64,000 nt of DNA from Methanonatronarchaeales archaeon (lineage in GTDB: Archaea; Halobacteriota; Methanonatronarchaeia; JAANXF01). The position numbers and the translations under genes are program-made. The stretch covers positions 16,001 through 80,000 of the forward strand of contig JAANXF010000017.1 in the NCBI GenBank assembly GCA_018263395.1. The letters run 5' to 3'. Of the stretch, positions 32,447-63,974 are shown in pieces. Each line of letters starts with the position of its first letter. Position 1 is the stretch's first letter. The notes beneath the pieces are model-generated. The model ran no database searches. It saw nothing but the letters and a program-made list of their open reading frames with translations, and had not been told where the DNA came from.

Positions 32447-32647
32447 CCTACCGCCCCGGAACGCGGTCATGGCGCATTGACCCGGCGTTCAAAACATGTC
32501 TTAACACCCCGTATTGGCACATCTCCCTCAAGATAACAGCCCAGAAAACCCCTATTCTGTGCTGTTTTGAGGAATAATCAGGAAAACTGCCGCCATCAAA
32601 ACGCTGTTACGGCTCTTAACTGTCCCTGTTTTAGTCAGTTAACGGGC

Positions 32648-32679
32648 ATAACACCAGATAACACCGATAGTTTTAATAA
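32648..32679 (+). promoter_or_regulatory. Direct repeats ATAACACC (x2, 10-bp phasing) abutting a TATA-like TTTTAATAA; putative promoter/operator of the cassette
   Basis: The sequence gcATAACACCagATAACACCgatagTTTTAATAAgcgccctgacataacaATG places the TATA-like element about 20 nt before the ATG at 32696, so the transcript is leaderless or near-leaderless. Confidence 0.5.
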
Positions 32680-32695
32680 GCGCCCTGACATAACA

Positions 32696-33739
32696 ATGGG
32701 TATCATGGGGAGAAAGTACCTCGTTGACATTCCGGCCCACCTGGCCCGCAGGACGGATGCCCTGATAGACTCCGGTGACTACGAGTCCGTCTCCGCGTTT
32801 GCACGTGCTGCCTTCGAGAACCAGCTCCTTCTCCACGCCTCAAATGAAGAAACAATTCTAGTCGATGATGCTCCGGATACCGGAACAGCTCCAACCCAAG
32901 AATCCGCTTCAGATGATGAGCAGGCGATTGATAGTTGGCGGGAGGCGCTGTCACTGTCCAAGCTAAACGCCGAAAGCGTGGAAACAGCCGAGGCCGAGCC
33001 GATAACCGACGGGCCGATATGGGGGCAGTTCAACAAGCTCCTCCCCATCAAGATAGGGGTGCGGGGTCTGGCGGTCCTCCAGTCGGATGAGGGCGGGCCG
33101 GTCCCACTCGAAGAATTCCGGAAAATCGTCGGTGAGCAGGCATCGCAGGTCCGCACACACCTAGGGAGGCTAGACGATGCGCAGGGCAGGCGCAGGGGCG
33201 AGAAGATGGCCGCCGGACTGCCGGACGGAAGCAGTGAGAAGTCCGTAAGGCGCTACCGCAACCACTTCCTAGGCTCCCTGGACAGCGACGGGGACATGCG
33301 GGGTGCGCTGGCCGAGATGGGATTTGTCAGGCTGTATGTGGACGGCGACGGGGAGATGGCATCCCTGACCGATGCGGGACTCGACTTTGCTGAGATCGCC
33401 AGCCCGGTTCTGGATGGGAAGGATGAGCCGACCATGACGCTCTCCGAGGATGAGAGGAAATTCCTGATTCGCCACATGGCCGAGAACATCCCGGGGGAGA
33501 TTGAGGGCATGAGGCAGATTCTGGACTGGATAGAGAATGGCCACAACACTCCTAACAAGTTAAATAAAAAGGTCGCAACAATGAATGAGGAATGGTCGGA
33601 AAAGATGGCTAAAACTATGAGAACGGGGCTACTCGGAAGGATGTACGACCTCAGGCTGGTCGAGAGGGAGTGGGAGGGGATACGGGTGACCTATTCATCC
33701 AAAGACCAAGAATCGCTCATTGCTTCCGGGGAGGTGTAG
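32696..33739 (+). CDS. Ribbon-helix-helix N-terminal domain protein with probable winged-helix C-terminal region; function unknown
   Basis: The N-terminus MGIMGRKYLVDIPAHLARRTDALIDSGDYESVSAFARAAFENQLL is a typical RHH/CopG beta-alpha-alpha pattern. An acidic linker and an unassigned roughly 250-aa region follow. I prefer the ATG at 32696 to the track start at 32567. Confidence 0.6.
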   Translation: MGIMGRKYLVDIPAHLARRTDALIDSGDYESVSAFARAAFENQLLLHASNEETILVDDAPDTGTAPTQESASDDEQAIDSWREALSLSKLNAESVETAEAEPITDGPIWGQFNKLLPIKIGVRGLAVLQSDEGGPVPLEEFRKIVGEQASQVRTHLGRLDDAQGRRRGEKMAAGLPDGSSEKSVRRYRNHFLGSLDSDGDMRGALAEMGFVRLYVDGDGEMASLTDAGLDFAEIASPVLDGKDEPTMTLSEDERKFLIRHMAENIPGEIEGMRQILDWIENGHNTPNKLNKKVATMNEEWSEKMAKTMRTGLLGRMYDLRLVEREWEGIRVTYSSKDQESLIASGEV

Positions 33740-33744
33740 CCATT

Positions 33745-35745
33745 ATGGAAGACAAGTTTGAGGCATATGAAAAGGGCTCTAGAGATACCACGGTTAACTG
33801 GGATAACACTCTGAAGGGGATTAAGGATAGCTATGACCAGCACAGGGGTCTTGTCCATGGCATCCAGAAAGATGCAATCCAAAACGGGTGGGATGCCCGC
33901 ATTAATAGAGAGCAGGGAACTGGTTGGAAGTTTACATTCGAGCTCGTTAGGGATGGGGATGATGCGCTCTTTGTGATGAGGGATGAGGGCACGACTGGTC
34001 TTACTGGCAGAATCTTAGAAGAGGAGGAATACACCGAAGAGCTGCCACCGGGGGAGCGATGGGCGCGATTTGAGAGCCTAGCGTTTATAAAGGAGGAGGC
34101 TGGAGGATCGCTTGGATCAAGAGGGCAGGGAAAATTCATATTTGTTGCTGGTTCGGGCAATAAGACAATAGTTTATGATACCTATCGTGAGGACGGCACG
34201 TACCGAGCAGGGATGCGTAGAGTTAAAAAAACAAGATCTCCTGTGGTAGCTTGGGACGGTGAAGAGGGAAGGGAGAAGTTCGACGATCTTACCGGAAACC
34301 TCCTTGAGCCGTTTCAGTCGGTTGGAACCCGTGTTGTCATAGTTGATCCGGTGGATGAGCTCTTAGAGTCTGTTGAATCAGGAGGTTTTCTCCGATATGT
34401 TGGGGAAACTTGGTGGGAGATTATTCTAAAATACGATGCAACAATCGAGCTAGTTGTTGATGGTGAGACATTTACTGCTACTATACCTGAGGAATTCAAC
34501 CTCGTTGAGGAGGATACCGACAATCTTCGATGTTGGACTAGGGAGTTCGAAATGGTTGAGGACGAGTACAAGATTAAAAAGCTCCACATAATCAGTTCCA
34601 ATGACGATGTACCAAATGATTTAAATGGAATTTCGATTCAACGGGGTGGGATGAAGGTTGATGTGATTGAGCCAAAATACCTTCCCAGAGATATCTCAAA
34701 AAGTATCTATGGCTACATCACTGTCGATGATGATGTTGAAGATGAGCTGAAGCGAGCTGAGAATCTGACACATTACGGCTTCAGTTATCGCTATAAAGCG
34801 CCCAAAGCAATCAGGAATTACGTTGAAAAACAGTGCGAGAAATTTGCCCAAGAGAAGCTCGGGTGGCAGAGCTCTAGGCAGGCTGTAAGGGCCAGAAGGC
34901 AGAGAAACGCTGAGAGGATGGCACTAAGGCAGATAAACAGAATAGCGGAGGAGTTCGATTTCCCCTCCACGCCCGGGATGGGTGGTGATTCAGGAGGATC
35001 AGGGGGAACAGGTGGAAACGGGGGCGGCGGTGGCAGTCCAAAACCGCTTCGTATTTGGATGCCTGACTTGAAGCTGCCTCGTGAGGACGATTTGAGGGTA
35101 GATTATGGTGAAAGCGTTGGCGACATCCAAGCCAAAGCAATAAATGAAAGCGCTGACCCTCTTGAGGTTAAGCTAAAAATTTACATCCGCAAGAATGATG
35201 AACTCAAAAGAGTCTATTTGAACGAGGAGCTCTGGCTCTCCTCCGGAACAAGTAGTGATAGCTATGGACCTTTTGAACAGCACTTTGAGGAGGAAGAATT
35301 TGATCCTGGAAGATACACGGTAGTTGCACGTCTAATCTTATTGAGTGATGAGGACTTTGGGGGTGTCCTTGACGAGAAAAGAAAGTCTTTTTATCTAGAA
35401 GAAGAGCCACCCTCAGGTGGAGGAATTTTCGAAGATTGCGAAGCCGTCGAATTCGATACAACATCTCGGCTGATGGGCTGGGTAACCGGGGGCGATGAGG
35501 GGGGTTATCGTCTTCAGTACAATGTCCTTCACCCAGCGTATAAAGACGTTTGGGAGAGCGAGGAAGACCTAGCGGAATACCTATTTCGCATTATGGCCCT
35601 CGAACTTTATCGAGTGGACCTTGAACGTGGGGAGCCGGTCATTTTTACGGATTTGGGAGGGGAAGTATCACCAGGGGAAATTGCGTATGAAATAGTCGAA
35701 GAACTTAGTGAATTCACGTATCAATACCATGCGGGTGAGGGGTAA
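33745..35745 (+). CDS. GHKL (Bergerat-fold, MORC/HATPase_c_3-like) ATPase with Gly-rich linker and beta-rich C-terminal region
   Basis: The Bergerat motifs are readable. N-box: GIQKDAIQNGWDA. G1: VMRDEGTTGLTG. G2: GGSLGSRGQGKFIF. Motif IV-like: VGTRVVIVD. These are followed by GGDSGGSGGTGGNGGGGGS and a roughly 250-aa tail. GGAGGTG lies 9 nt upstream of the ATG at 33745. Confidence 0.7.
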   Translation: MEDKFEAYEKGSRDTTVNWDNTLKGIKDSYDQHRGLVHGIQKDAIQNGWDARINREQGTGWKFTFELVRDGDDALFVMRDEGTTGLTGRILEEEEYTEELPPGERWARFESLAFIKEEAGGSLGSRGQGKFIFVAGSGNKTIVYDTYREDGTYRAGMRRVKKTRSPVVAWDGEEGREKFDDLTGNLLEPFQSVGTRVVIVDPVDELLESVESGGFLRYVGETWWEIILKYDATIELVVDGETFTATIPEEFNLVEEDTDNLRCWTREFEMVEDEYKIKKLHIISSNDDVPNDLNGISIQRGGMKVDVIEPKYLPRDISKSIYGYITVDDDVEDELKRAENLTHYGFSYRYKAPKAIRNYVEKQCEKFAQEKLGWQSSRQAVRARRQRNAERMALRQINRIAEEFDFPSTPGMGGDSGGSGGTGGNGGGGGSPKPLRIWMPDLKLPREDDLRVDYGESVGDIQAKAINESADPLEVKLKIYIRKNDELKRVYLNEELWLSSGTSSDSYGPFEQHFEEEEFDPGRYTVVARLILLSDEDFGGVLDEKRKSFYLEEEPPSGGGIFEDCEAVEFDTTSRLMGWVTGGDEGGYRLQYNVLHPAYKDVWESEEDLAEYLFRIMALELYRVDLERGEPVIFTDLGGEVSPGEIAYEIVEELSEFTYQYHAGEG

Positions 35746-36405
35746 ATGGCGGTTATAATCCGAGAGACTCGAGAAATAGCCGGTAAAAGAAGTGAGGTTA
35801 AGATATACAGGACAGATGGCCTTCTGACAAGGGAGGAGAAACAAAGGGCCGAGGAACTCGACGACCTGATTCAAAGGGAGATGAGTGCTATAGTCGAAGA
35901 CCTAAAAGAAAAGTCCTTAATAACAGGAGAAGGGGAGAAAAAGAATTTGGAAATTTGGTACAAAATCGGGGGGGGTCTACAGTTCATAGATCAAACAGAT
36001 TTAATCGAAGATCGAGACAGAAAGTACATATGGAGGGCTATTTACGACCATTCCGGCCCCCTCCATACGGGGGATATACCAGTAAGGGCAGATCGCCCTA
36101 AAAACAACGATTTCAGATATGCATATTTACTTGCTAAAAACTTCGATTGGGAATTCGTTGAATCAGGTGGAACATGGACTACTTGGGGTGAATTTTTTGA
36201 CTCGCCAGTTATACGTAATGACCAACGAATCATCGACTGGTTGGGAACTGTCAAAGAGAGGAGAGGGGACCAAGGTCTACAGGATTGGATACGGCCACTT
36301 ACGGTAGAAATTCGAAGAGAACTTAAAAATGTGGATACCGGTGTATTCGAAAAAGCAAGATTAGTAGAGAGGCTAGAACGTATCTATAATTCGATCAAAG
36401 GGTAG
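35746..36405 (+). CDS. Hypothetical 219-aa protein, translationally abutting the GHKL ATPase gene
   Basis: Its ATG immediately follows the upstream TAA (taaATG). I can recognise no catalytic motif. It is Trp-rich and helical-looking (EIWYKIGGGL, TWTTWGEFF, IIDWL). Confidence 0.55.
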   Translation: MAVIIRETREIAGKRSEVKIYRTDGLLTREEKQRAEELDDLIQREMSAIVEDLKEKSLITGEGEKKNLEIWYKIGGGLQFIDQTDLIEDRDRKYIWRAIYDHSGPLHTGDIPVRADRPKNNDFRYAYLLAKNFDWEFVESGGTWTTWGEFFDSPVIRNDQRIIDWLGTVKERRGDQGLQDWIRPLTVEIRRELKNVDTGVFEKARLVERLERIYNSIKG

Positions 36406-36413
36406 TATTCGGA

Positions 36414-37031
36414 CTAATTGGCGTAAATACATGCTTTATTTAGGGTGCAGTTATTGCAATCGGGATTAGGCCTGCAATATACTGCAGGGAAATCCAGTAA
36501 CGCCAGATTATAAGTTCGATAGTCTGAGTTTGGTAGTAACTTCTGTGCCTTTTTAGCAATTTTTTTCTGATCCGATATCCCAAAATACCTAGAAATCAGA
36601 CGCCTCACATTGGTATCAAGGATTGGAAATCTCCTATTTGCAGCAAAGCAAGCTGTCGCGTTTGCGATGTAGTCTCCGAGCTCATCTATCCCTTTGAGCT
36701 CCTCCGGGTTCGTTGGTGTATTTCCACCGTATTTTTCCCCCACCTCCTCGACGGTCTCGTGCATCATCTTGAGTCGACGATTCACAAGTCCCAGGGTTTC
36801 CAGAATCTCCCTTAGGTCGTCCTCGTTGGCCCGGCTGAGGTCCTCCATCGTGGGATACCTTTTAATGAATTCATTGTAAACCCCCTCAACCTGATCGGCC
36901 CGTGTTCGCCTCAACATGATTTCGGCCATCAGAACCCGGTATGGGTCATCCGTGGCACGCCAGGGATAGCTTCTCAGGTTCTCCTCGGCGAACTCCAGCA
37001 GCGTGTTTACGAAGAACTCCTCTTCCTTCAT
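36414..37031 (-). CDS. HhH-GPD superfamily DNA glycosylase (MutY/Nth/Mig-like) with 4Fe-4S loop
   Basis: It has YPWRATDDPYRVLMAEIMLRRTRADQV, an HhH region, the catalytic-Asp segment PILDTNVRRLISRYFG and the C-terminal Cys cluster CRPNPDCNNCTLNKAC. It overlaps the methyltransferase stop by 4 bp. Confidence 0.8.
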   Translation of the reverse strand: MKEEEFFVNTLLEFAEENLRSYPWRATDDPYRVLMAEIMLRRTRADQVEGVYNEFIKRYPTMEDLSRANEDDLREILETLGLVNRRLKMMHETVEEVGEKYGGNTPTNPEELKGIDELGDYIANATACFAANRRFPILDTNVRRLISRYFGISDQKKIAKKAQKLLPNSDYRTYNLALLDFPAVYCRPNPDCNNCTLNKACIYAN

Positions 37032-38407
37032 TGGGCCTCGACGGAGGCCGGAACGCTCTGCTTGGAAACCGGCTCGACTTGGGCGCCCGCGAACTTTCTG
37101 AGAAGCGACTCGGCCATCCTTTTAGCGAGGAGCGGCGGCACGGCGTTCCCGATCTGCCCGTACTGGGCGGTTCTGGGGCCGCTGAATCTGTAGTCGTCCG
37201 GGAAGGACTGAATGCGGGCTGCCTCCCTCACTGTGAACGTTCTTGCCTGCTTATCATCTGGGTGTATGAAGCGGTTGCCGTCCTTTGCGAGATGAGCGAA
37301 GATGGTTGTGCTGGGCGCATTCCAGCTCTGCTTTCGGTACTTGTCCTTGAAGGAGCTCATGTCGTACTTTATACAATTCCTGATGTCCTGCTCATAATCA
37401 CCCTCAACCACGTCCTTCGCAGTGTGCCCCTGTTTCATGGCCCGGTACAGTCGCTGGTCCCTTCGCATATGGCTCCGAGCGATGTGGTCTGTGAGGTGCT
37501 CGGGGATATCCGGTACAACGAAATCCAAGAACTCTTGGCCCGTTTCATCAAGGTTCCTGTAGTGACTGAAGAAGCAATCCTTGTGATACTCGACCTGCTT
37601 CTCACCGTTGCGCCTACCCTCGTTAATCTTTCTGACTTTATCCCTCTCATCGTCGGGGATATCTGTAAATGTGTACTTTGCCTCCAACTCGGGAAGGTCA
37701 CCAATTGTGTCCCAGAGGGTGACTTGGGGCTTCTTCCCGTCTCCGTGCGTCCTTTCCGGGAAGGGGTTTTTGATGGACTGGTTATTTCCTATCAGGAAGA
37801 TTCTACGCCTGTTCTGGGGCACACCGTAGTCGGCGGCGTTGAGCTTGAGGTACGTATCTTGGATGAGCTTATCCTGTCTTTCGTTCTCGAAAGTGTACCC
37901 GATGCTCTCAAGGTCCTGACGAATTATCTGGACGTACGGGGTGCCGTCCTCACCCTTCTTTGATGCCAGCCCGAGAACGTTTTCAAAAACTATGAAGCTC
38001 GGGCTGAGGGTTTTTACTAGGTCGATGTAGGCCATATACAGGTCATCACGCGAATCGTTTTCAAATTTTGAGTTCCCGACGCCGTACCCGGAGCGTGGGC
38101 CGATTAGGGAGAACGACTGACACGGGGGACCACCGATGATAACATCTACCTGACCGTTACATAGGTCGAGAATCTCCTTTTTGGTATCCTCATCGTTGAG
38201 GTCCCCCAAGATTACCCTGTTGGGGTCCTTGTCTCTCTCTTTAAAGTGGGAACGCAGTGTCTGACAGGCGTATTCATTTTTATCCACAGCACACACGGTC
38301 TCGAACGAGTAACCGTCAATCTCGTCTGCAAGCTCGAAGCCGAGGTAAAAACCCCCTCCTCCTGCGAAGAGGTCTAACACTCCGAGCTTCTCGGACATCC
38401 CGTCCAA
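37028..38407 (-). CDS. dcm: DNA (cytosine-5)-methyltransferase
   Basis: All signature motifs are present: I LDLFAGGGGF, IV GGPPCQSFS, VI FVFENVLG, VIII QNRRRIFLIG, IX REAARIQSFPDDY and X GNAVPPLLA. There is a long variable (TRD) region between VIII and IX. Confidence 0.93.
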   Translation of the reverse strand: MDGMSEKLGVLDLFAGGGGFYLGFELADEIDGYSFETVCAVDKNEYACQTLRSHFKERDKDPNRVILGDLNDEDTKKEILDLCNGQVDVIIGGPPCQSFSLIGPRSGYGVGNSKFENDSRDDLYMAYIDLVKTLSPSFIVFENVLGLASKKGEDGTPYVQIIRQDLESIGYTFENERQDKLIQDTYLKLNAADYGVPQNRRRIFLIGNNQSIKNPFPERTHGDGKKPQVTLWDTIGDLPELEAKYTFTDIPDDERDKVRKINEGRRNGEKQVEYHKDCFFSHYRNLDETGQEFLDFVVPDIPEHLTDHIARSHMRRDQRLYRAMKQGHTAKDVVEGDYEQDIRNCIKYDMSSFKDKYRKQSWNAPSTTIFAHLAKDGNRFIHPDDKQARTFTVREAARIQSFPDDYRFSGPRTAQYGQIGNAVPPLLAKRMAESLLRKFAGAQVEPVSKQSVPASVEAQ

Positions 38408-54262: not shown

Positions 54263-54991
54263 TTAATCCGCCGCCCCGGAGGTAATACTTTCGGGGTCGG
54301 ACCCTGCCCGTTTGAGCCGGAAGCGGAAGAAGGTCTCGAAGAGCTGCATCATCCCCGGGCTGTCGCTGAATATGCCTCTCCTTCCGTCCTCCGTCTCGAA
54401 CGACACGAGCATCTCGGAGTCCCCGATGACCACGAATCCGTTCATCCTTATGGGATGGGCGAAATCGTCGGGGAACGGCCGGGTGTCGACGTCGACTTCC
54501 GCGGTGGTCACCACCCTGGTTTCCGCCGCCGTCTCGCTCAGTTCAGGTTCCAGGTCCGCGACGACGCCGGGGTAATCAATTATCCATACCTTCTCTCTGG
54601 ACGCGCGAATTATCTCGCGGCCCCTCTCGACGACGTTTCTCTCCCCCGTGATGGTCCAGACCCCTCCCTTGCTCTCCTTCCGGGACTCCGTGTACGCCTT
54701 CTTCAGCGTCTGGAGGGCCTCCCGCTCCTCAGAGCGCCTCAGCCTCTTCAGGCGGTCCATAGCCTCCTCCGGCTCCACCGCCCTGTAAACTGTAGGTCGG
54801 GAACCGGACGTCTCGACCAGTCCCCGGTCGGCGAGCCTGTCGAGGGCTCCGTAGACGTTGGAGCGCGGCACCCCGCTTTCCTCGTGCACCTCCTTGGCCG
54901 TCGCCTCCCCCAGCCTGGTGAGGGCGGTGAACGCCAGGGCCCCGTACTTGGTCGGCCCCAGCTTCTCGAGTTTTTTCGCCGCGTCATCCAC
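54263..54991 (-). CDS. trmB: TrmB-family transcriptional regulator
   Basis: The N-terminal wHTH is LGPTKYGALAFTALTRLGEATAKEVHEESGVPRSNVYGALDRLADRGLV, with a TrmB-type C-terminal domain and a GTG start. Confidence 0.85.
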   Translation of the reverse strand: MDDAAKKLEKLGPTKYGALAFTALTRLGEATAKEVHEESGVPRSNVYGALDRLADRGLVETSGSRPTVYRAVEPEEAMDRLKRLRRSEEREALQTLKKAYTESRKESKGGVWTITGERNVVERGREIIRASREKVWIIDYPGVVADLEPELSETAAETRVVTTAEVDVDTRPFPDDFAHPIRMNGFVVIGDSEMLVSFETEDGRRGIFSDSPGMMQLFETFFRFRLKRAGSDPESITSGAAD

Positions 54992-55022
54992 ACGGCCGAA
55001 TCCACCGGGACAGTAATTAATG

Positions 55023-55040
55023 TTGTTGTTTTAACAACAA
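55023..55040. promoter_or_regulatory. Perfect 8-bp inverted repeat TTGTTGTT-tt-AACAACAA abutting an A/T-rich TATA-like element; candidate TrmB operator
   Basis: The sequence is aatgTTGTTGTTttAACAACAAaaaatatatg. It lies in the 56-83 bp divergent spacer between trmB and the surface-protein/RND gene pair. Confidence 0.5.
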
Positions 55041-55074
55041 AAAATATATGTCCACTTCTCGAAGAGGGTTGGGC

Positions 55075-56517
55075 ATGAGAAAGCTTCCTCCCGTTATCGC
55101 GACGCTCACATTGGTGGCACTGCTGCTGGCGTCCACACAGCCGTCTTCCGCCATTCTGGGAATCGAGGACCTGCCGCCCACCCACCAGGAAAAGTTCGCC
55201 GACGACTGGTGGGACGTCGACTCAGAGCCCGAGTTCGACGCCGAGGTCATGCAGAGCGAGATCGGTCCCGGGAAGCCGCAGCAGATCCACGTCCTACTTA
55301 CCAACGTCGGCCAGACCACGGGCTTCGACTCCGTCAACGACCCGGCAAGCGGAGGCGCACACGTCACCAGCGACCCGGTGAACGACACCAAGGCCGCCGG
55401 CAAAGAACTCGGCTACGACCAGGAGGGGACCACCGCAAAGAACCTGGTCGCCACTCTCGAGGGCAAGGGCCCGATAGAGGTGGACACCCGGACCGCCTCC
55501 TCGCCCTCCCCCGTGATCTCCGGCGCATCCGCCCAGCTGCCCTTCACGGTCACCGTGGACGAGGACGCGGAATCAGGAACATACGAACTCAACTTAACCC
55601 TCTCCTACAACTACCTGCAGGACGCCGCGGTGTTCTACGACAGCGGCAACTTCGTCCCCTACAGGTACCACAGGCGGACCGAAACCACGATACCCGTAAA
55701 GGTGACCGTCGAGGAGAACCCCGTGTTCGAGGTGATCGACGTGGAGGTCGCCGAGGGCGAACTCCGGCTGAGCAGGGAGTCCACGGTCGCAGTCACCTAC
55801 CGCAACATCGGGCAGGACACCGCCTACCGGGCCGAGTCCAGCCTGACCACGAAGCCGCCGTTCTCCACGCAGGGAACCGTCCGCCCCTCCGGAGGCGCGT
55901 CCGCCGACACCACGTTCCTCGGAGACCTCGCACCCGGAGAAGAGGCCACCGCGACCTACGAGCTCTCGGTCTCCAGGGACGGACTCGCAAAGAACTACAG
56001 CCTCAAGTCCAGAGTCAGCTTCGAGGACTCCGGTGGCAACACCGAGACCTCACGCGCCCTCAAGACCGTGCTGAGCGTCAGGCCCTTCGAGAAGCAGTTC
56101 CGCGTGGTCGACGCCGAGCTCGGGTCCGAACTGACACCAGGAGGGGAGTCCGCCCTGACGGTCACGTTCGAGAACACCGGGGACAGGCCGGCAAACGACG
56201 CGGTCGGCCGCATCAGCGTCGCCGACCCATTCACGTCGACTAGCGACACCGCCTACCTCGGAGACATCGAACCCGGCTCGACGGCGACCGCGAGGTTCAG
56301 GCTCTCCGCCGCCGGCGACGCCATGCCGAAGCGCTACGGCGTCGACTCCGAGGTCAAGTACAGGGACGAGAACGGCCGCACCAAGCTCTCCGACAACATG
56401 AAGGCCGAGGTCCAGGTCGGAGAGACCTCCGGCGGCCCCCTCGGCGCACCCGGTCTCACAGCCGCCTCCGCCGCCGCGGCCCTCGCCCTCCTGGCGCTCC
56501 TCGCCAGACGCAGATAG
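55075..56517 (+). CDS. Secreted repeat-rich cell-surface protein (COG1361-like) with PGF-CTERM-like anchor
   Basis: The signal-like MRKLPPVIATLTLVALLLASTQPSSA is followed by repeated beta-rich modules. The C-terminus is GAPGLTAASAAAALALLALLARRR (Pro-Gly-x, hydrophobic helix, basic tail). The track ORF starts at 55048. Confidence 0.7.
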   Translation: MRKLPPVIATLTLVALLLASTQPSSAILGIEDLPPTHQEKFADDWWDVDSEPEFDAEVMQSEIGPGKPQQIHVLLTNVGQTTGFDSVNDPASGGAHVTSDPVNDTKAAGKELGYDQEGTTAKNLVATLEGKGPIEVDTRTASSPSPVISGASAQLPFTVTVDEDAESGTYELNLTLSYNYLQDAAVFYDSGNFVPYRYHRRTETTIPVKVTVEENPVFEVIDVEVAEGELRLSRESTVAVTYRNIGQDTAYRAESSLTTKPPFSTQGTVRPSGGASADTTFLGDLAPGEEATATYELSVSRDGLAKNYSLKSRVSFEDSGGNTETSRALKTVLSVRPFEKQFRVVDAELGSELTPGGESALTVTFENTGDRPANDAVGRISVADPFTSTSDTAYLGDIEPGSTATARFRLSAAGDAMPKRYGVDSEVKYRDENGRTKLSDNMKAEVQVGETSGGPLGAPGLTAASAAAALALLALLARRR

Positions 56518-56582
56518 ATGCCTCGCCGCCCCCTAGAGAAGATGAGGGACTTCGAGTCGAGCACCTCTGAGAGGGAGGAGAG

Positions 56583-58874
56583 ATGCTGAGCGACCTTTTC
56601 AGCCGGATAGGGACTATCGCGTCCAGGCACCCCGCCGCCATGCTCGCACTCGCCCTGCTCCTATCCTTCGCCGCGGTACAGGGCGCCGGCATGATAGGGT
56701 TCGCCTCCGGCTCTGACACCTTCATCCAGAAGGACACCCAGATATTCCAGACCTACGACACCTACAAGGAGAACTTCCTCTCCGAGAACATCGTCCTCCT
56801 CGTCGAGACCGACGACGTAACTGCCCCCAAAGAAATCCGGGCAATAAAACGCTTCGACAAAACCACCTCCCAAATCGAGGGCGTCGAAAACGTCTTCAGC
56901 GTCGCCGACGTCGCCGCACCCGGCGAAACCGTCCCCAACCACCCAGAAATCGTTCGGCGCCTCGACGCCGCCCCGCCCGGAAACCTCGAGCGCGTCATGC
57001 CGGACACCAAGCGCTCTTTCGTCCTCGTGGAGCTCGAGCAGGGCCTCTCCGAAGAACAGACCCGGCAGACCTATCCCCGGGTCCAGGACTCCGCCCGCTT
57101 CGCCGAGTTCCCCGCCGGCACCTCCACCCTCCTCACCGGCTCACCGGTCTTCGGCCTGCAGATGCAGGGGGCCATGCAGCGCGACCTCGGCGCCATGTTC
57201 GGGGCCGCCGCCCTCCTCATGGTCCTCGCCCTCACCCTGTTCTTCGCAAACGTCGAGTTCCGGCTGCTGCCGCTGCTCATCGTGCTCGTCGGCGTCTTCT
57301 GGACCTTCGGTGGCATGGGGTTCCTCGCCGTCCCCATGACCATGGTTTCGATGGCGATATTCCCGATCCTCGTCGGCATAGGTATCGACTACGCCGTCCA
57401 GTTCCACAGCCGGGTCCAGGAGGAGATGGAGGACGGCTCAGCCTCCGACGCCATACCCACCGCCTACCGCACCACCGGACCCGCCGTCCTCGTCGCCCTC
57501 GTCGCCACCGGACTCGGATTCGTCGCCATGATGACCTCCCCCATACCGATGATAGGGGACTTCGGCATGATGTCCCTCATCGGGGTCGTCGCCGCCTTCC
57601 TCGCCGTAATAATCCTACTCGTCCCGACCTACCTCCTGCTGGGGCGGTACGCCCCCGACCTCTCCGGACGCATCCCCTCGGCCGGAACCGGGTTCAACCC
57701 GCTGGAGAGGATGGACCTGGAGACCCACCTCGGCAACGCCGCCCTCACCGCGGCGAAGCACCCGGTTCTGATACTGCTCGCCTCCACGGTACTCATGGCG
57801 GGCGGATACGCCGTCTCGGACCAGGTCGACGTCGAGATACAGGAGGAGGCCCTCATTCCCCAGGACATGCCGGCCCTCCTCAACATACAGAAGTTCCAGG
57901 ACCTCGGAGGAGGAGGCCGCCCCATCGCCGTCGTCGTCAAGGGGGACGTACTCGCCCCGGAGACTCTGGAGTGGATGCGGGATTTTGAGAAGCGACAGGT
58001 AGAGAAGAACCCCTACTTCGTCGGTCACAGCTCCATCGCCGACTCCGTCGCAGCCGCCAACGGCGGAGAGATACCGGACAGTCGCTCCGAGGTCGAACGG
58101 ATCGTGGAGAACCTGCCGGACGTGCCGGTGGAGAGCCAGCTCGAGGGGAACTCCCAGGCCGTCGTCCGCCTCGACCTACCCGGGTTCATAGGATTCGAGA
58201 AGTTCATGGACACCATAAACGCGCTCGACCGGGACCTCCGGTTCAATCGGCCGCCGCCCGGCGTATCAACCGCCGTCACCGGCGACATGGTGCTTATGAC
58301 CACGGCGTTCGACGCCATCGCCACCGGCCGAACCTTCATGAGCGTCCTCGCCCTCGGACTCATATTCGTAGCCCTGACCGCGATATACCGCGACCCCGTC
58401 AAGGCCCTCGTCCCCCTGATACCACTCGCGTTCGTCATCGGGTGGAACGGCGCCGCCATGTTTCTGACGGGGACGGACTACACCCCGCTCACCGCCACAC
58501 TTGGGGCACTCACAATCGGCGTCGGCTCCGAGTACACGATCCTCATGATGGAGCGCTACTTCGAGGAGCGGGAAGACCTGCCGCCCCTCGAAGCAATGGA
58601 GACCGCCGCCTCAAAGATCGGCCGCGCCATAACCGTCTCGGGCCTCACAACGGTCTTCGGATTCAGCGCACTAATGGCCAGCGACTTCCCCATGGTCCAG
58701 AACTTCGGCAAAGTCACGGTCATCACCGTCCTCCTCGCCCTCCTCGCCGCCTTCGTCGTGCTGCCGCCGGTCGTAGTGGGTCTCGACCGCTGGAGGGGAC
58801 GCGGCATCAGGGTCAGCCTGAGGGAGGCGGTGTCATTCTCCCTTTCCTTCCTACTGTCCGGATGGAAACGGTGA
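56583..58874 (+). CDS. MMPL/RND-superfamily exporter (COG1033-like)
   Basis: The 763-aa ORF has two blocks of about 6 TM helices, each preceded by a large extracytoplasmic loop. This is the typical MMPL architecture and pairing with a COG1361-like protein. Confidence 0.8.
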   Translation: MLSDLFSRIGTIASRHPAAMLALALLLSFAAVQGAGMIGFASGSDTFIQKDTQIFQTYDTYKENFLSENIVLLVETDDVTAPKEIRAIKRFDKTTSQIEGVENVFSVADVAAPGETVPNHPEIVRRLDAAPPGNLERVMPDTKRSFVLVELEQGLSEEQTRQTYPRVQDSARFAEFPAGTSTLLTGSPVFGLQMQGAMQRDLGAMFGAAALLMVLALTLFFANVEFRLLPLLIVLVGVFWTFGGMGFLAVPMTMVSMAIFPILVGIGIDYAVQFHSRVQEEMEDGSASDAIPTAYRTTGPAVLVALVATGLGFVAMMTSPIPMIGDFGMMSLIGVVAAFLAVIILLVPTYLLLGRYAPDLSGRIPSAGTGFNPLERMDLETHLGNAALTAAKHPVLILLASTVLMAGGYAVSDQVDVEIQEEALIPQDMPALLNIQKFQDLGGGGRPIAVVVKGDVLAPETLEWMRDFEKRQVEKNPYFVGHSSIADSVAAANGGEIPDSRSEVERIVENLPDVPVESQLEGNSQAVVRLDLPGFIGFEKFMDTINALDRDLRFNRPPPGVSTAVTGDMVLMTTAFDAIATGRTFMSVLALGLIFVALTAIYRDPVKALVPLIPLAFVIGWNGAAMFLTGTDYTPLTATLGALTIGVGSEYTILMMERYFEEREDLPPLEAMETAASKIGRAITVSGLTTVFGFSALMASDFPMVQNFGKVTVITVLLALLAAFVVLPPVVVGLDRWRGRGIRVSLREAVSFSLSFLLSGWKR

Positions 58875-58896: not shown

Positions 58897-61095
58897 TCAG
58901 GTACTTTGGGACCGCTGAATTAATAGACGTTGGATGTATCTCGTGACTTTTGTATGGGATAGGGAGAACTCGTCGAATTCTGAGTATTCGGATTTGGCGG
59001 CTTCAAACTTCTCTGCCGAGTAAAATTTTCCTTCTCTGAGCTTTTCCAAATAGTCCGAACCAAGGGGAGCAAGGAATTCATTAATAAACCAATTTTTTTC
59101 GACCGCTACGATAACGTTGTCTCTCACACTGTTTAAGTAATAGTCATCGATTAGGAAGCAGACTAGGGGGAGTTGTATACGGAGGTCCTGAATGATTGCA
59201 TCAACTTCCTGCTCATGGATTTGTTCATGCTCCAATTGGTTGATGATGGGCTTTATGGAATTCTTAAATGGTTCCCTTGCTTTAACAAAGAGTCTCGGTC
59301 TGTCCTTGGACCTAAGCACTGACCACAGGACGAACTTCCACAATGCCATCCATCGGTTAAAGGATCTTTCGAGGGCGAGTTCCGGACTCTCCTCGGAAGT
59401 CGCAGCCTTTTCAAGTTCTCTAGTAATTTTTTTGATGGCGTTCTCCCGAATCTCTTCCCACTCTGGAGTCTCTAGTGGCTTTGGGGTTTCCTCCTCACTA
59501 TCCTCTCCAGGTCCCCGGACGGGAGAGGAAGGGGGGGCGTCGGAATCTGAATCTTGGTAATCGAGTTTGGTAAAATCGAAATTGCTCAGGAAATGAGAGA
59601 GAGCCAAGCGGTCTTTCGGCCGTTCACCGTACATCTCCAAAACTTCGATGATGCCGTCACGCCACTCTGTTCGCTCCCCCTCTCTGATGGTCCTTCGAGG
59701 CGGCAACCCTGATATTCTATCCTTCGAGAGCCAACGCCAACGCGTTTTGATCGCCTCCTTTCCCGGAGTTACAAACTCGAGACGTACCTGCGTCGGTTCC
59801 GAACAGAATTCGACGCCTCCCTCGTCTAGTTCGGAGACAAACTCGTCATCTTCCTGGCGGGCGAGGTACTTCGAATCCTCATCCTTTTTCTTAGGGTGGG
59901 TTAACTGAACGTTTACTTGCGTATCTGGTCCCGGAGGTCCCTTATCCTTTAATTTAACCCTAATCTGTTTCTCTTTTAAAAGAGCCTCTTGTATATTAAT
60001 CTCTCCTCGAATTTCCGCATCTGGAAATTTTGGGTAGGAATATGCGATGCTCTTGAGGTCGATTTTTTCTATGGTGAACGAGTCAGAGGAAATGAGGTGG
60101 TCGAATCCGTCTCTGCCTAGGGCCTTCCTGAGAATGGCGGTCTCAATATTTCCTTCTCCTCCAGCGGTTAGGAGTGCAGCTCTTGTTAGGTTAGGGCTGC
60201 CGTACAAGCAGTAGGAATGCTGATGTCCTTTTAGGATAAGCGCCTTTCCGTGGATGAATCGAGTGGGCTCTTCGCTGAAATTGATTTCTCGAAGCCCTAC
60301 TTTGCATCCAGTCTCCTCAAGTTCGGGAATAGCTTCATGAGGAAAACCTCGGACCTTCTCGGGCTGGATATATAGCTGAAAAGAGGAGCACCCAGCTTCG
60401 GCCAACATTTTAAGAGGCTCTCCCTTCTCGTCCCAGAATGGGGAGATGATGTGGGCTTCCTCAATCTCCTCCTCAATTATATCTAGGATGTTGGGGAGTA
60501 TGGGGGATTGGAGGTTGTGGAGGAAACGGAGTGCGTCGGTGCCTGCTTGCCCTTCAACCGCTTCCAAGACCTCCTCGTGAGCTTTCCGCAGAACTTCCTG
60601 ATGGCGTTGAGAAGAAACCAATTCAGTTTTAATAATCTCATCTATAAAAGATGCTACGCCACGAATGGCGCTGATCTCCTCAGGAGTTGATTCGTGATGA
60701 CCAAATTCAAAAGAGTCCGCTATCTCTCCATTTTTGTCCCATCCTCTGTTTGTCAGATTGAAACTGCCGAAAAGCACTTTCACGTATCCGGGCCCCGAAA
60801 GGAGACAGACCTTCGGATGAAAAGTTCCACTGGTTGGGACGTAATCTAGATAGTATCGATGGCCAAGATGGTTCGTATCTGTAGATCTTTGGTATTCTGA
60901 TATATCGGTGAGAACTAGGGTTTCGCGCACCCCCAAAGAGGAGAGGGTTTTGAGAGCTACATTTTCGAAAAACGCTGGGTCGAAATTGAAGGTAAGGAAG
61001 ATGGCGTAGTCCGCTTCGTCGATTCCTCTAAGGTTTTTGCGGAGATTCTGTTCCGGCTTTCCTCGCTCGCCCAACTTGTTAGCCGCCGTTGACAA
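58897..61095 (-). CDS. Two-HKD phospholipase-D-family (nuclease-like) protein with long unassigned C-terminal region
   Basis: There are two HKD-type motifs: TFHPKVCLLSGPGYVKVLFGSFNLTNRGW and FIHGKALILKGHQHSYCLYGSPNLTRAAL. About 400 further residues include an acidic Ser/Pro/Glu linker and a helical tail. It sits on lower-GC DNA, and its TTG start overlaps the upstream gene by 17 nt. Confidence 0.7.
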   Translation of the reverse strand: MSTAANKLGERGKPEQNLRKNLRGIDEADYAIFLTFNFDPAFFENVALKTLSSLGVRETLVLTDISEYQRSTDTNHLGHRYYLDYVPTSGTFHPKVCLLSGPGYVKVLFGSFNLTNRGWDKNGEIADSFEFGHHESTPEEISAIRGVASFIDEIIKTELVSSQRHQEVLRKAHEEVLEAVEGQAGTDALRFLHNLQSPILPNILDIIEEEIEEAHIISPFWDEKGEPLKMLAEAGCSSFQLYIQPEKVRGFPHEAIPELEETGCKVGLREINFSEEPTRFIHGKALILKGHQHSYCLYGSPNLTRAALLTAGGEGNIETAILRKALGRDGFDHLISSDSFTIEKIDLKSIAYSYPKFPDAEIRGEINIQEALLKEKQIRVKLKDKGPPGPDTQVNVQLTHPKKKDEDSKYLARQEDDEFVSELDEGGVEFCSEPTQVRLEFVTPGKEAIKTRWRWLSKDRISGLPPRRTIREGERTEWRDGIIEVLEMYGERPKDRLALSHFLSNFDFTKLDYQDSDSDAPPSSPVRGPGEDSEEETPKPLETPEWEEIRENAIKKITRELEKAATSEESPELALERSFNRWMALWKFVLWSVLRSKDRPRLFVKAREPFKNSIKPIINQLEHEQIHEQEVDAIIQDLRIQLPLVCFLIDDYYLNSVRDNVIVAVEKNWFINEFLAPLGSDYLEKLREGKFYSAEKFEAAKSEYSEFDEFSLSHTKVTRYIQRLLIQRSQST

Positions 61096-62746
61096 ATTTA
61101 TCTAGAATCTTCAGCCCGTCTTGGGTGGGGGATATACTTGTGTCACCTAAGGTGGCTAGGCCTAGATCTCGGAGGGTTGATTTGGAACTGTTGAGTCTTG
61201 TCGTGCGGTGCCCCGCGTCGTGATCACGCTTCATGACATATCCGTCCTCCCCTCTACTGAAGTAGGTGGGGATATTTGGTTTGCTTAATGCAATGTTTCT
61301 GGCCTCGCGGATTACGTATTCATTGAAGAAATCACGTGCAAACTCCTCGACAGTAAGGCGCTGATTCAATACCTCTTGGTGGAGGTAGTCAACAAAGCGA
61401 ACGATGCTCAAATCGTTATTGGCGTGGTTTTGTATCCAGGCCCATGAGGATGAACGTGTTTCTTTGAGGCGAAAGTTCCTCATGTACAGGGTGAGGAGTA
61501 GGACAATCCAGACTGAGCCGATTTTCTCTTGGTTACGATTATTGGCCATAGCCGCTTCGAGTTCCTCCACCAGCTTCACTTCATTTAAGTGATGATCCAG
61601 CCCAACTCGCCGATCAAATTCTCGACTGGGCTCTCTGTAGGGCTCTCCCCACGACGTTTCTGTTATACTTTGCGACGTTGACTCTACGAGATAGCTAAGG
61701 TTGGTGGTTTCTGGTGAATCGATATCTTCCGTGATTGATTCGATTAATGAGAGAGAGTCTCTGGTGATATCGCTTACGAAATCGTCAGGATTATTTGTTC
61801 CTCCACCCTCAATTTCTGAAAGAAACGACGATAGAAGGCATTCTAGACAATAAGTAAAGAAATCGTTGGCCGTAAAGATGCTCCATCTTTCAACAATTTC
61901 GTTTAGCTCCTCAGGTATGGCTATGCTTTGGTACGTATCCCCGGTCGGTATCGCCCTCAGATAAGAGGCGCTACGAAAAGTGGATGTATCCAAGGGCGTT
62001 CCGAGTTGGCCTACCCTTTCGGCAAGAAAGAGGATATACAGCAGGGACTGTTTGCGGAAGATGTGCCGCTTGTCGCTAGAACTGGACCTATCCCTCAGGA
62101 AAATTTCCCTCAGCGCTTCTCGTTCCGGCGCATCCTCGTCACCCAACCGGCAGAGGCAAACAGATTTTCCGGCTTCTAAGAGTCCTCGTTTAGTTGCTGT
62201 GCTCTTTTTAGATATGGCTTTAAGCCCGGCTTTAGTTGCAACTTTGTCGAAGAGCGAAGCAATCTCTTTACCCCGGTCGGTAGGCTTGTCGTATTTGTCG
62301 CCTTCAGTAATACGGAGCAACCCGATGGTATGGGTGGGACCCCGGTAATCTTGGGTGTAGCCTCCTCCTAGACTCGATAGAAATCTGAAATCGAGGTCTA
62401 CCGTGTCTTCCCCTTCCTCCCAGGTCCTGCTTCCCTTAATCTCTCCCTCCATCGCCCGATGGTCTTCTGAGCCATTCTCAGCGCGGTGGGCAATACACGA
62501 AAGGAGGTAGGCCCTCTCCAGCTCATAGATTCCATCACGCAAATCGTTCCAATCTTCGATGTCATCCTCTTTGTCGAGCTCGTGGGCACACCACGTGTAG
62601 AACGAGTAATATCGAGCTCTTTGTGAAGTAGTGGTAATTCCGTGAAGAAGGTCAGCTACTAACCTATCCGAGGCTCTGTTTGCCCCCAAGGGTTCTCTTG
62701 CTCCCTGCTCTTCTGTCTGAGCCGTCCAGAAAGGCCTACTTCCCAT
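61079..62746 (-). CDS. Hypothetical 555-aa protein, operon partner of the PLD-family protein
   Basis: It is a long ATG-initiated ORF on lower-GC DNA with non-repetitive, protein-like composition (e.g. GITTTSQRARYYSFYTWC, ELERAYLLSCIAHRA). I recognise no family or catalytic motif. Confidence 0.6.
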   Translation of the reverse strand: MGSRPFWTAQTEEQGAREPLGANRASDRLVADLLHGITTTSQRARYYSFYTWCAHELDKEDDIEDWNDLRDGIYELERAYLLSCIAHRAENGSEDHRAMEGEIKGSRTWEEGEDTVDLDFRFLSSLGGGYTQDYRGPTHTIGLLRITEGDKYDKPTDRGKEIASLFDKVATKAGLKAISKKSTATKRGLLEAGKSVCLCRLGDEDAPEREALREIFLRDRSSSSDKRHIFRKQSLLYILFLAERVGQLGTPLDTSTFRSASYLRAIPTGDTYQSIAIPEELNEIVERWSIFTANDFFTYCLECLLSSFLSEIEGGGTNNPDDFVSDITRDSLSLIESITEDIDSPETTNLSYLVESTSQSITETSWGEPYREPSREFDRRVGLDHHLNEVKLVEELEAAMANNRNQEKIGSVWIVLLLTLYMRNFRLKETRSSSWAWIQNHANNDLSIVRFVDYLHQEVLNQRLTVEEFARDFFNEYVIREARNIALSKPNIPTYFSRGEDGYVMKRDHDAGHRTTRLNSSKSTLRDLGLATLGDTSISPTQDGLKILDKFVNGG

Positions 62747-62810
62747 TGCTGCACTCTCTCAGACTGTAGTATCACGTTGTTTGGAAAAGTGCTGCGGTGG
62801 CATTAGGATT

Positions 62811-63974
62811 CTACCCCCGCTCCCCCTTCGCCACGTCCCTCAGCAGCAGCGCACCGACTGCGACACCGGCCAGCACCGCGAGGAAAACCGCCACGATGCC
62901 GCTCGCGGTGTAGAGCCCTGCCAGCACCAGCGGTGCGAAGCCGTATCCCAGGAAGCGGAAGGAGTTGTAGATGGAGGCCGCGGTGCCCCGGGCCTCCGGC
63001 ACAAGCTCCACGGACAGAGTGTTGTATGACGTGAAGACCGTGTGGGCGCCGAACCCCAGCAGCATCAGGCCCGCCACGAAGCTGTACACCTGCACCCTGG
63101 CCGCCACCAGGAGCAACACGAGGCCGCCCAGCGCCATGACTCCGAACCCGAGCAGCGCCGTCCTACGGCGACCGAGTCCGTCCGCCAGGTACCCCGCCAT
63201 CGCTCCGGCCGGAATCCCCATGCCGAGCCCGAGGGACACGATTGTTCCGATTCTGCCCTCGCCCAGTCCCAGCGGCGGCCCGGCCAGGAAGTCGGAGGAG
63301 TAGGACGCGGCCCCGATGAGGCCGAAGAACACCGCCGCGGAGGAGAGCGACATCATGACCACGGACCGGTTCCGCAGCACCGTCCCCAGCCGTGTCGCCG
63401 TCTCCCGAAGAGCGTAGGACTCCCCCCGGTTCCGGATGATGGCGACGTACATGAGGCCCACCACGGCCGACACGGCCGCGAGTAGCACGAAGAAGACGCG
63501 CCAGCCGTACAGCTCCTGCGTCCACCCCCCAGTGAACGGTCCCAGCACGTTCCCCACCGCGATGAACATCGAGAACAGCCCCATGACGCGTCCCCTGAGC
63601 TCCGGTCCGAACTGGTGCCCGATGGCGCCCATCAGCACAGGCGCGATGAAGGCGGAGCCACTGCCCTGCACCGCCCGCGCCCCCAGCATGAACGAGAAAT
63701 CCGGAGACGCCGCCACGCCCAGGGCCCCGCCGCCGTACAGCAGAAACCCGAACGCCAGCACCCGTCGCTCCCCCAGCGTCTCCGCCACCGCCCCCGACAC
63801 GAGGAGCAGCAGGGCAAACGGCACCATGTACGCCGTGATGAGGCTGTTCGCCTGCGCCACCGTCACCCCGAGCTCCGCCTGGAACGTCGGTATCAGGGGA
63901 AATATGGCGTCCCCGCCGAACGGGCCCAGGAAGGCACCGACCGGCAGGAGCCACCGCAGTCTGCTCCTCTCCAC
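62811..63974 (-). CDS. Major facilitator superfamily transporter
   Basis: The 387-aa ORF has about 12 predicted TM segments and the MFS loop motif-like LADGLGRRRT. Confidence 0.8.
   Translation of the reverse strand: MERSRLRWLLPVGAFLGPFGGDAIFPLIPTFQAELGVTVAQANSLITAYMVPFALLLLVSGAVAETLGERRVLAFGFLLYGGGALGVAASPDFSFMLGARAVQGSGSAFIAPVLMGAIGHQFGPELRGRVMGLFSMFIAVGNVLGPFTGGWTQELYGWRVFFVLLAAVSAVVGLMYVAIIRNRGESYALRETATRLGTVLRNRSVVMMSLSSAAVFFGLIGAASYSSDFLAGPPLGLGEGRIGTIVSLGLGMGIPAGAMAGYLADGLGRRRTALLGFGVMALGGLVLLLVAARVQVYSFVAGLMLLGFGAHTVFTSYNTLSVELVPEARGTAASIYNSFRFLGYGFAPLVLAGLYTASGIVAVFLAVLAGVAVGALLLRDVAKGERG

Follow-up and report, generated by a model that had tools for sequence, protein, structure and literature searches.

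Based on the analysis of a 64-kb stretch of contig JAANXF010000017.1 (hereafter, the window), which derives from a Methanonatronarchaeales metagenome-assembled genome, we suggest that two adjacent genes, here termed A and B, were probably gained by horizontal transfer and probably form a self-contained two-gene nuclease system that acts against invading DNA, i.e. viruses or plasmids. In this model, which we hold with moderate confidence, the pair is a relative of the Azaca system without the ZacC helicase. Azaca, which was reportedly described by Millman et al. in 2022, consists of ZacA (DUF6361), the phospholipase D (PLD) nuclease ZacB and the superfamily 2 (SF2) helicase ZacC. The two genes, together with the longest possible open reading frame (ORF) of B, are:

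61079..62746, minus strand: gene A, an ORF with an ATG start encoding 555 amino acids (aa); soluble and acidic, from a family of ~550-aa proteins without annotation
58897..61074, minus strand: gene B, encoding a 725-aa ZacB-like PLD-family protein, with a TTG start at 61074
58897..61095, minus strand: longest ORF of B, 732 aa from the first TTG

Both ORFs are real genes, because full-length homologues of both are found in many genomes. As the start of B, the TTG at 61074 is favoured by the NCBI gene model (725 aa) and by the alignment of homologues, and it lies 4 nucleotides (nt) past the stop codon of A. An earlier account of this DNA, made from its letters alone (the sequence-only reading), had described a 17-nt overlap of the two genes. 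This overlap exists only with the longest ORF of B and disappears with the favoured start, and therefore depends on the choice of start. Whichever start is right, A and B are co-directional and tightly coupled.

B carries the features of a PLD enzyme with two HKD motifs and a long extension:

60040..61017, minus strand: double-lobed PLD catalytic core, aa 20-345, with AlphaFold2 (AF2) predicted local distance difference test (pLDDT) values mostly 70-90
60724..60819, minus strand: HKD motif 1, H86-P-K88 ... G103-S104-F-N106 ... N115-x-E117; peptide HPKVCLLSGPGYVKVLFGSFNLTNRGWDKNGE
60142..60252, minus strand: HKD motif 2, H275-G-K277 ... G292-S293-P-N295 ... N309-x-E311; peptide HGKALILKGHQHSYCLYGSPNLTRAALLTAGGEGNIE
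58900..60003, minus strand: C-terminal extension, beta-rich in aa 358-448 and then helical in aa 460-725

The two HxK...GSxNLT motifs to which the sequence-only reading had drawn attention are read directly from the sequence as HPKVCLL...GSFNLT and HGKALIL...GSPNLT. Among 71 family members, H86, S104, N106 and E117 of motif 1 never vary, conservation is 99% at K88 and N115, and in motif 2, H275, K277, G292, S293, N295, N309 and E311 are all 100% conserved. A Pfam scan of B returned PLDc_2 alone (E 1.1e-9; 38.7 bits against a cut-off of 27) and, with two motifs, a family match above the cut-off and a matching two-lobed fold, B belongs to the PLD/HKD superfamily. In PADLOC, the best family for B is ZacB (E 1.1e-17; aa 89-403 against model positions 107-413), as it is for all nine B relatives scanned (1e-17 to 2e-21 over 300-400 columns); weaker matches in the B family are to DrmC (9e-4 to 1e-10), PbeA (3e-9) and PDC-M27B (2e-5 to 2e-9). 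At the level of sequence families, the core of B groups with the defence nucleases ZacB, DrmC, PbeA and DpdK. Foldseek searches of the PDB with the predicted core matched PLD and Tdp1 structures with E values from 4e-11 to 1e-7, led by phospholipase D 7e0m (4e-11) and Tdp1 (5e-10); further matches were phosphatidylserine synthase, polyphosphate kinase, the PLD lobes of SauUSI and NgoAVII, NucT and Zucchini. For the predicted model, these matches establish the superfamily, not the substrate; sequence searches of solved structures with B gave no significant match.

A grouping of B with cardiolipin or phosphatidylserine synthases, which the sequence-only reading had itself raised, is not what we find. 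The NCBIfam scan of B gave no match at E<=1, the models for these synthases included, and neither A nor B has a membrane segment (no 19-residue window with hydropathy >1.6). The nearest families are the defence nucleases, and phosphatidylserine synthase is a generic fold match only. The C-terminal extension (~380 residues, aa 346-725) is present in all family members and is poorly conserved. It is predicted with AF2 confidence of 50-65 in the beta region and <50 in the helical region, and it matches no Pfam or PADLOC family and has no similarity to ZacA, ZacB or ZacC, in agreement with the earlier remark that the last 400 or so residues resemble nothing recognisable. B proteins fall into two length classes of about 704-770 aa and about 815-956 aa (loci L012-L091), and B is 722-739 aa long in the window and at L005, L012 and L191, all of them archaeal or archaeal-looking loci.

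The link to Azaca is extended by A, in which two regions stand out:

62405..62704, minus strand: ZacA/DUF6361-like domain, aa 15-114, with the motif EPLG...GITTTSQRARYYSFYTW (peptide verified)
61091..61279, minus strand: probable winged-helix (DNA-binding) module, aa about 490-552

Pfam and NCBIfam scans assigned A to no family, metabolic and lipid-related ones included, so that the suggestion of a metabolic or lipid-related protein, also aired in the sequence-only reading, falls away. In PADLOC, A of the window gave a marginal match to ZacA (E 4e-4, aa 10-79). Taken alone, this single match is weak; across the 20 members of the A family that were scanned, however, the ZacA model (positions about 26-114) hits this N-terminal stretch in 15, and the best E is 1.7e-8. 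As a ZacA reference, we used two canonical Azaca plasmid loci that both encode a DUF6361 protein, a PLD protein and a ~1,080-1,100-aa helicase; the loci were reached via weak tblastn matches to annotated DUF6361 genes. In hhalign, the A family aligned with ZacA of these two loci with a probability of 95.4% (E 1.6e-8; 97 columns, A 18-114 against ZacA 28-128), and the N-terminal domain of A alone aligned with a probability of 96.7% (E 3.5e-10). The motif common to A and ZacA is D-x-L-G ... P-G-I/T-T/S-T-x-x-x-R-A-R/K-Y-Y/F. Judged by these profile comparisons, the first ~100 residues of A are homologous to ZacA/DUF6361, and this homology argues that the pair is a helicase-less relative of a known system and not something unrelated. 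In other words, the description of the whole upstream protein as unrecognisable no longer applies to its head; it still applies to the remainder, as nothing in ZacA, ZacB or ZacC matches residues 115-555.

The AF2 model of A, built from a 95-sequence alignment, is very confident (pLDDT 94.3; predicted template modelling score 0.93) and shows a largely helical protein that has a few small beta hairpins. Foldseek found no match for it in the PDB (best E 0.49) or in BFVD (best E 0.22), and sequence searches of solved structures with A gave nothing significant. At the C-terminus, the predicted secondary structure of aa 496-552 runs strand-strand-helix-strand-strand-helix. Relatives of A match HTH_45 here (best 1.2e-4; 22.5 bits, under the Pfam gathering cut-off of 25.5), a PDB profile search gave weak matches to Sso10a (E 0.017) and eS19, and K489, R517, D527 and G544 are nearly invariant in the family. 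The C-terminal ~60 residues of A are, on this evidence, a probable winged helix.

A and B are almost never found apart. A scan of 185,579 species genomes, one genome per species, with a motif derived from 5 sequences, found about 145 relatives, of which 80 loci were kept. Using local hidden Markov models for A and B, we found that A is directly followed by a co-directional B at 70 of the 80 genome loci. At four of the other ten, B is cut by the end of the contig, three are broken within A and are uninformative, and three have no intact B. The genes are, therefore, paired at 74 of 77 informative genome loci, and also at all nine plasmid loci, which bears out the expectation in the sequence-only reading that homologues of the two genes would be neighbours. 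In the reverse direction, every locus found through B had an A-family gene upstream. The stop of A and the start of B overlap by 4-11 nt at 59 of the 70 loci, and the genes are translationally coupled. Loci in decay were also seen: B is reduced to 84 aa at L019 and lost at L032, both genes are frameshifted at L068, and at L021 an orphan A of 717 aa lies beside an HsdR fragment. Where one intact gene is left, the survivor is A.

The family is large and widely spread. Word-indexed searches, which found 4-9 relatives, had suggested orphans; this was overturned by an exhaustive HMMER profile scan of the A family, which gave 2,689 clusters at 50% identity, of which 682 reach E<=1e-30. The clusters are almost all full length (about 540-570 aa), and every named one is called 'hypothetical'. 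The 80 genome loci span >15 bacterial phyla as well as archaea, with the pair present in Archaeoglobaceae, Planctomycetota, Verrucomicrobiota, Acidobacteriota, Chloroflexota, Myxococcota, Desulfobacterota, Pseudomonadota, Fibrobacterota, Nitrospirota, Spirochaetota, Actinomycetota and others. The archaeal carriers are methanogenic, haloarchaeal and Archaeoglobus-type, and plasmid carriers include Halobaculum, Haloferax, Halorussus, Mycobacterium avium, Prevotella, Myroides and Polaromonas. Searches of 50,697 phage genomes and of IMG/VR gave no relative.

In the window, the composition of the pair strongly supports horizontal acquisition, as the sequence-only reading had inferred from DNA that looked low in GC. 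The GC content is 0.486 over 58897-62746 and 0.628 in the remaining window, and in 500-nt windows it is 0.45-0.53 within the pair compared to ~0.64-0.69 outside. At third codon positions (GC3), A has 0.526 and B 0.514, while native genes mostly have 0.83-0.91 with a median of 0.84. The pair lies between two transporter genes, whose identities are as the sequence-only reading had given them, and with as little spacer on either side as it had noted:

62811..63974, minus strand: MFS_1 transporter, flanking on the A side
62747..62810, minus strand: spacer from the MFS stop (62811) to the ATG of A, 64 nt, the sole room for a promoter of the pair's own
56583..58874, plus strand: MMPL transporter, flanking on the B side

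On the MMPL side, 22 nt separate the MMPL stop (58874) from the stop of B. The remaining window is core genome and encodes, among others, RtcB, TFIIB, gyrase, topoisomerase VI, a class I tRNA synthetase and ilv gene products. Every contig retrieved by exact match to A or to the MMPL protein carries the same insertion, and these contigs come from several sequencing runs. A metagenome scan with the MMPL protein gave relatives of <=42% identity, in which a trio of TrmB, CARDB and MMPL genes is present and no MFS gene adjoins. No uninserted MMPL/MFS site was, therefore, seen among the exact-match contigs or the metagenome MMPL relatives, which yielded no close relative of the host. At the pair, a search for boundary repeats, attachment (att) sites and target-site duplications gave just short repeats at chance level; the nearest tRNA is 4.8 kb off, and no integrase or insertion sequence (IS) element adjoins the pair in the window. 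The trio itself (TrmB regulator, CARDB/NEW3 surface protein and MMPL; window 54263-58874) recurs in distant methanogen-type metagenome contigs (L103-L182).

Two further places in the window have a deviating composition. A second low-GC island at 32567-38407 (GC3 0.41-0.69) contains three plus-strand ORFs without a Pfam match (390, 691 and 219 aa) together with:

37028..38407, minus strand: C-5 cytosine DNA methylase (Pfam 2e-65)
36414..37031, minus strand: HhH-GPD glycosylase

This island looks like an acquired 5-methylcytosine (m5C) restriction-modification (R-M) and repair module. A thymidylate kinase gene at 3347-4099 on the plus strand (Pfam 1e-39) is a lone low-GC gene (GC 0.405, GC3 0.42) amid high-GC core genes and may be another acquired gene.

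No third gene travels with the pair. Among 59 immediate neighbours of at least 280 aa, there is no recurrent family, and ZacC is not among the recurrent PADLOC families; ResIII/DEAD proteins occur four times (three of them HsdR), UvrD twice and integrases twice. More than 85% of loci have no helicase adjoining the pair. A divergent DEAD/ResIII helicase lies next door at L005-L007, and the one at L005 does not resemble ZacC. Within the 64 kb of the window, we found neither an SF2 helicase nor an ORF that joins a P-loop with a DExx motif, and both A and B are without a nucleoside triphosphatase (NTPase) motif. Azaca has been shown experimentally to be an anti-phage nuclease complex, in which all three proteins and the Walker A motif of ZacC are needed for cleavage of T4 DNA in vitro, while mutation of conserved ZacA residues had no effect on in vitro cleavage (bioRxiv 10.1101/2025.07.10.664194). 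Because ZacC and its Walker A motif are required there, the absence of any NTPase from the pair is the key difference between the two systems. At two loci (L002, 4390-9947; L003, 610-6167), a 1,554-aa protein with faint TPR similarity and a 291-aa protein without a family are encoded directly upstream on the same strand; they may be extra partners in that lineage.

Several likenesses to Azaca accompany this difference. In both systems, the gene for the accessory protein precedes that for the PLD nuclease; B has ZacB as its best family and two HKD motifs; the ~100-aa head of A is homologous to the same part of ZacA; both cassettes can sit between the hsdS and hsdR genes of a type I R-M operon; and both are found on haloarchaeal plasmids. 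By contrast, the A-B pair has neither a ZacC-like helicase nor any other NTPase, A is not a full-length ZacA (~550 aa versus ~400-420 aa), and the B family is larger than ZacB (700-950 aa versus 486-622 aa). The cassette thus lacks two of the three Azaca genes as these are defined, and the 2023 PADLOC models do not call it. On the basis of these comparisons, the data support that the pair is a helicase-less variant of an Azaca-type PLD nuclease system, with a ZacA-type head and a ZacB-type nuclease core as the common modules, that the helicase was replaced or dispensed with, and that both proteins gained large unique domains.

Other systems share less with the pair. SauUSI, NgoAVII, BfiI, DrmC, PbeA, DpdK and PDC-M27B have the HKD motif and the PLD fold in common with B. 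Unlike in Azaca, the matches to DISARM, PbeA, DpdK, PDC-M27 and the restriction enzymes are confined to the HKD lobes of B, and the pair is without the partners of these systems, i.e. DrmA/B and a methylase, the Pbe and Dpd clusters, PDC-M27A, and helicase or B3 domains. An assignment to DISARM was rejected, as the DrmC match has an E of 9e-4 over ~35 residues, the neighbours include no DrmA, DrmB or methylase, and DrmC is a short protein with a single HKD motif. PDC-M27 was rejected as well: the PDC-M27B match (2e-5) is weaker than that to ZacB, and A and 19 relatives never match PDC-M27A. In the literature on a named two-gene Azaca variant, on DUF6361 or on PDC-M27, we found no description of the cassette, the newest defence catalogues being outside the scope of this search.

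Relatives of the pair are often found among R-M, other defence or mobile genes, in some cases within a type I R-M operon, in line with the defence-island setting anticipated by the sequence-only reading; the figures are counts only. Type I R-M genes occur within 8 kb at 11 of about 74 genome loci. The order hsdM-hsdS-A-B-hsdR is found in Microbulbifer (L051, L079), on the Myroides plasmid pFM-G13 (L092) and at other loci, and at both Microbulbifer loci the stop of B overlaps the start of hsdR. On the Haliscomenobacter plasmid pHALHY01 (L193), a canonical three-gene Azaca lies between hsdS and hsdR. Thus, canonical Azaca and A-B appear to be interchangeable cargo at one hsdS/hsdR hotspot. Type I R-M operons are known to carry defence cassettes such as PARIS, PrrC and the GmrSD-like system of Vibrio VPI-2. 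A-B resembles these in Microbulbifer and on the Myroides plasmid, where it is co-oriented between hsdS and hsdR, and differs in that most copies, that of the window included, stand alone.

Elsewhere, the pair neighbours an MmeI-type R-M gene and a helicase-PLD protein at one locus, AbiE, E2/JAB/ThiF and WYL genes at another, and an Eco57I-type methylase and DUF2130 at yet another; in M. avium, it neighbours AbiE, a methylase and a restriction endonuclease, and on haloarchaeal plasmids, transposases and integrases lie beside it. PADLOC matches among the neighbours are to type I R-M, PbeA, GajB (Gabija-like), DRT, PARIS AriA and mad2, and a Mokosh-like gene is also present. Two loci have unusual surroundings. 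In Streptomyces (L008, 2535-7993), a co-directional four-gene cluster with a gene for an HSP70-family protein lies upstream of the pair, and a second HSP70/MreB-like gene and GrpE lie downstream, an unusual chaperone-rich setting. On a Roseomonas plasmid (L188, 644-3413), the neighbours of the pair encode a TatD hydrolase, a P-loop NTPase and the 7-cyano-7-deazaguanine synthase QueC, with IS21 adjoining. QueC is also near the pair at L009, and these neighbours may link the pair to 7-deazaguanine DNA-modification clusters.

How might such a pair work? In our model, A and B would form a stoichiometric complex in which A, as a targeting or licensing subunit, would position or gate the nuclease on target DNA via its winged helix and ZacA-like domain. 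B would cut DNA by a metal-independent PLD phosphohistidine mechanism that needs no ATP; this mechanism is established for Nuc- and BfiI-type enzymes. The extra domains of A and the C-terminus of B would stand in for the contribution of the helicase. Specifically, we propose, tentatively and with chances somewhat short of even, that the pair is an autonomous nucleoside triphosphate-independent immune nuclease, in which a new helical fold bearing a ZacA head plus a winged helix detects DNA that is foreign, and possibly modified, and permits the PLD nuclease to act. The complex, the DNA substrate, the ATP independence, the sensor role of A and defence itself are what we infer, and an anti-virus or anti-plasmid function is most likely given the families to which the pair is related.

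Several observations weigh against this model. The similarity of A to ZacA is limited to ~100 residues, and the Pfam model for DUF6361 does not match A of the window, with a best E of 0.12 in one of seven members. The winged helix is called from sub-threshold matches. The PLD fold by itself cannot tell nucleases from lipid enzymes or Tdp1-type repair enzymes. The surroundings at several loci, including that of the window, are metabolic or transporter genes and not a defence island, and the figures for defence neighbours are raw counts without a genomic background. Finally, because ZacC is essential for cleavage by Azaca, a pair without a helicase might be inactive, use a partner encoded elsewhere, or differ in how it works.

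Among the rival explanations, which in order of decreasing plausibility are toxin-antitoxin-like gating, a helicase acting in trans, a repair phosphodiesterase and a lipid enzyme, the one closest to our model also makes the pair an immune system. In this alternative, which we consider unlikely and yet the one most to be reckoned with, B is a constitutively dangerous nuclease held in check by A, which is both inhibitor and infection sensor, and B, freed upon infection, degrades host and viral DNA in a manner similar to abortive infection. An antitoxin-then-toxin order would fit the strict pairing, in which translation of A precedes and is coupled to that of B; the decayed loci at which B is lost or truncated and A is kept (L019, L032, L021) are expected if B alone is harmful; and the ZacA mutations without effect on in vitro cleavage leave room for a regulatory role. 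However, ZacA is needed for cleavage in Azaca and is not inhibitory, A is far bigger than antitoxins usually are, and the module with which it probably binds DNA suggests a targeting role. It is also possible, with still lower probability, that the pair is an incomplete Azaca that borrows a helicase or translocase in trans, which would be HsdR for copies embedded in a type I R-M operon or else the product of a ZacC-like gene elsewhere. The essential ATPase of ZacC in BmAzaca argues for this alternative, as do the type I R-M genes within 8 kb at 11 of about 74 loci, the overlap of B and hsdR at L051 and L079, and the DEAD/ResIII helicase beside the pair at L005-L007. The large majority of loci (>85%) nevertheless have no adjoining helicase, that at L005 is not ZacC-like, and none of the SF2 type is encoded in the 64-kb window. 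Moreover, large extra domains relative to ZacA and ZacB are expected for a function that was replaced, not lost, and a defective remnant would not stay intact in >15 phyla with invariant catalytic residues.

The two remaining alternatives take the pair out of immunity. That B is a Tdp1-like housekeeping phosphodiesterase for DNA repair or nucleic-acid processing, with A as its DNA-binding partner, would account for Tdp1 being among the best Foldseek matches of the B core and for the probable winged helix in A. We regard it as improbable in view of the patchy, mobile spread (about 145 of the 185,579 species genomes covered by the motif scan, and plasmids), the foreign composition, the embedding in R-M operons and the closest sequence families, which are all defence nucleases. 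In addition, an HKN variant of the motif is typical of Tdp1, and B has HxK...GSxN. Similarly, the position of the pair next to MMPL and MFS genes, and the presence of phospholipase D and phosphatidylserine synthase among the structural matches, could suggest a lipid-modifying PLD enzyme, similar to cardiolipin or phosphatidylserine synthases, that works with the two transporters. This is very improbable: MMPL and MFS neighbours are conserved at no other locus, the MMPL gene belongs to the separate, conserved TrmB-CARDB-MMPL trio, no NCBIfam synthase model matches, neither protein has a membrane segment, and the composition of the pair is unlike that of its flanks.

If the model of a self-contained two-gene nuclease system is true, it adds an unnamed, widespread defence cassette whose members are currently annotated as 'hypothetical' or 'PLD family protein', and it points to a possible means of antiviral defence in a lineage of extremely halophilic methanogens whose defences have received little study. 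A is a good target for structure determination, as its predicted fold is very confident and without a match in the PDB or BFVD. The pair also represents a natural experiment on Azaca, in that its two core modules are found both alongside the helicase, which is essential in vitro, and in its absence, and a comparison of the two settings could separate the role of ZacA-type proteins from that of the helicase. An autonomous cassette, if true, would show that the Azaca core is able to work without a motor protein.

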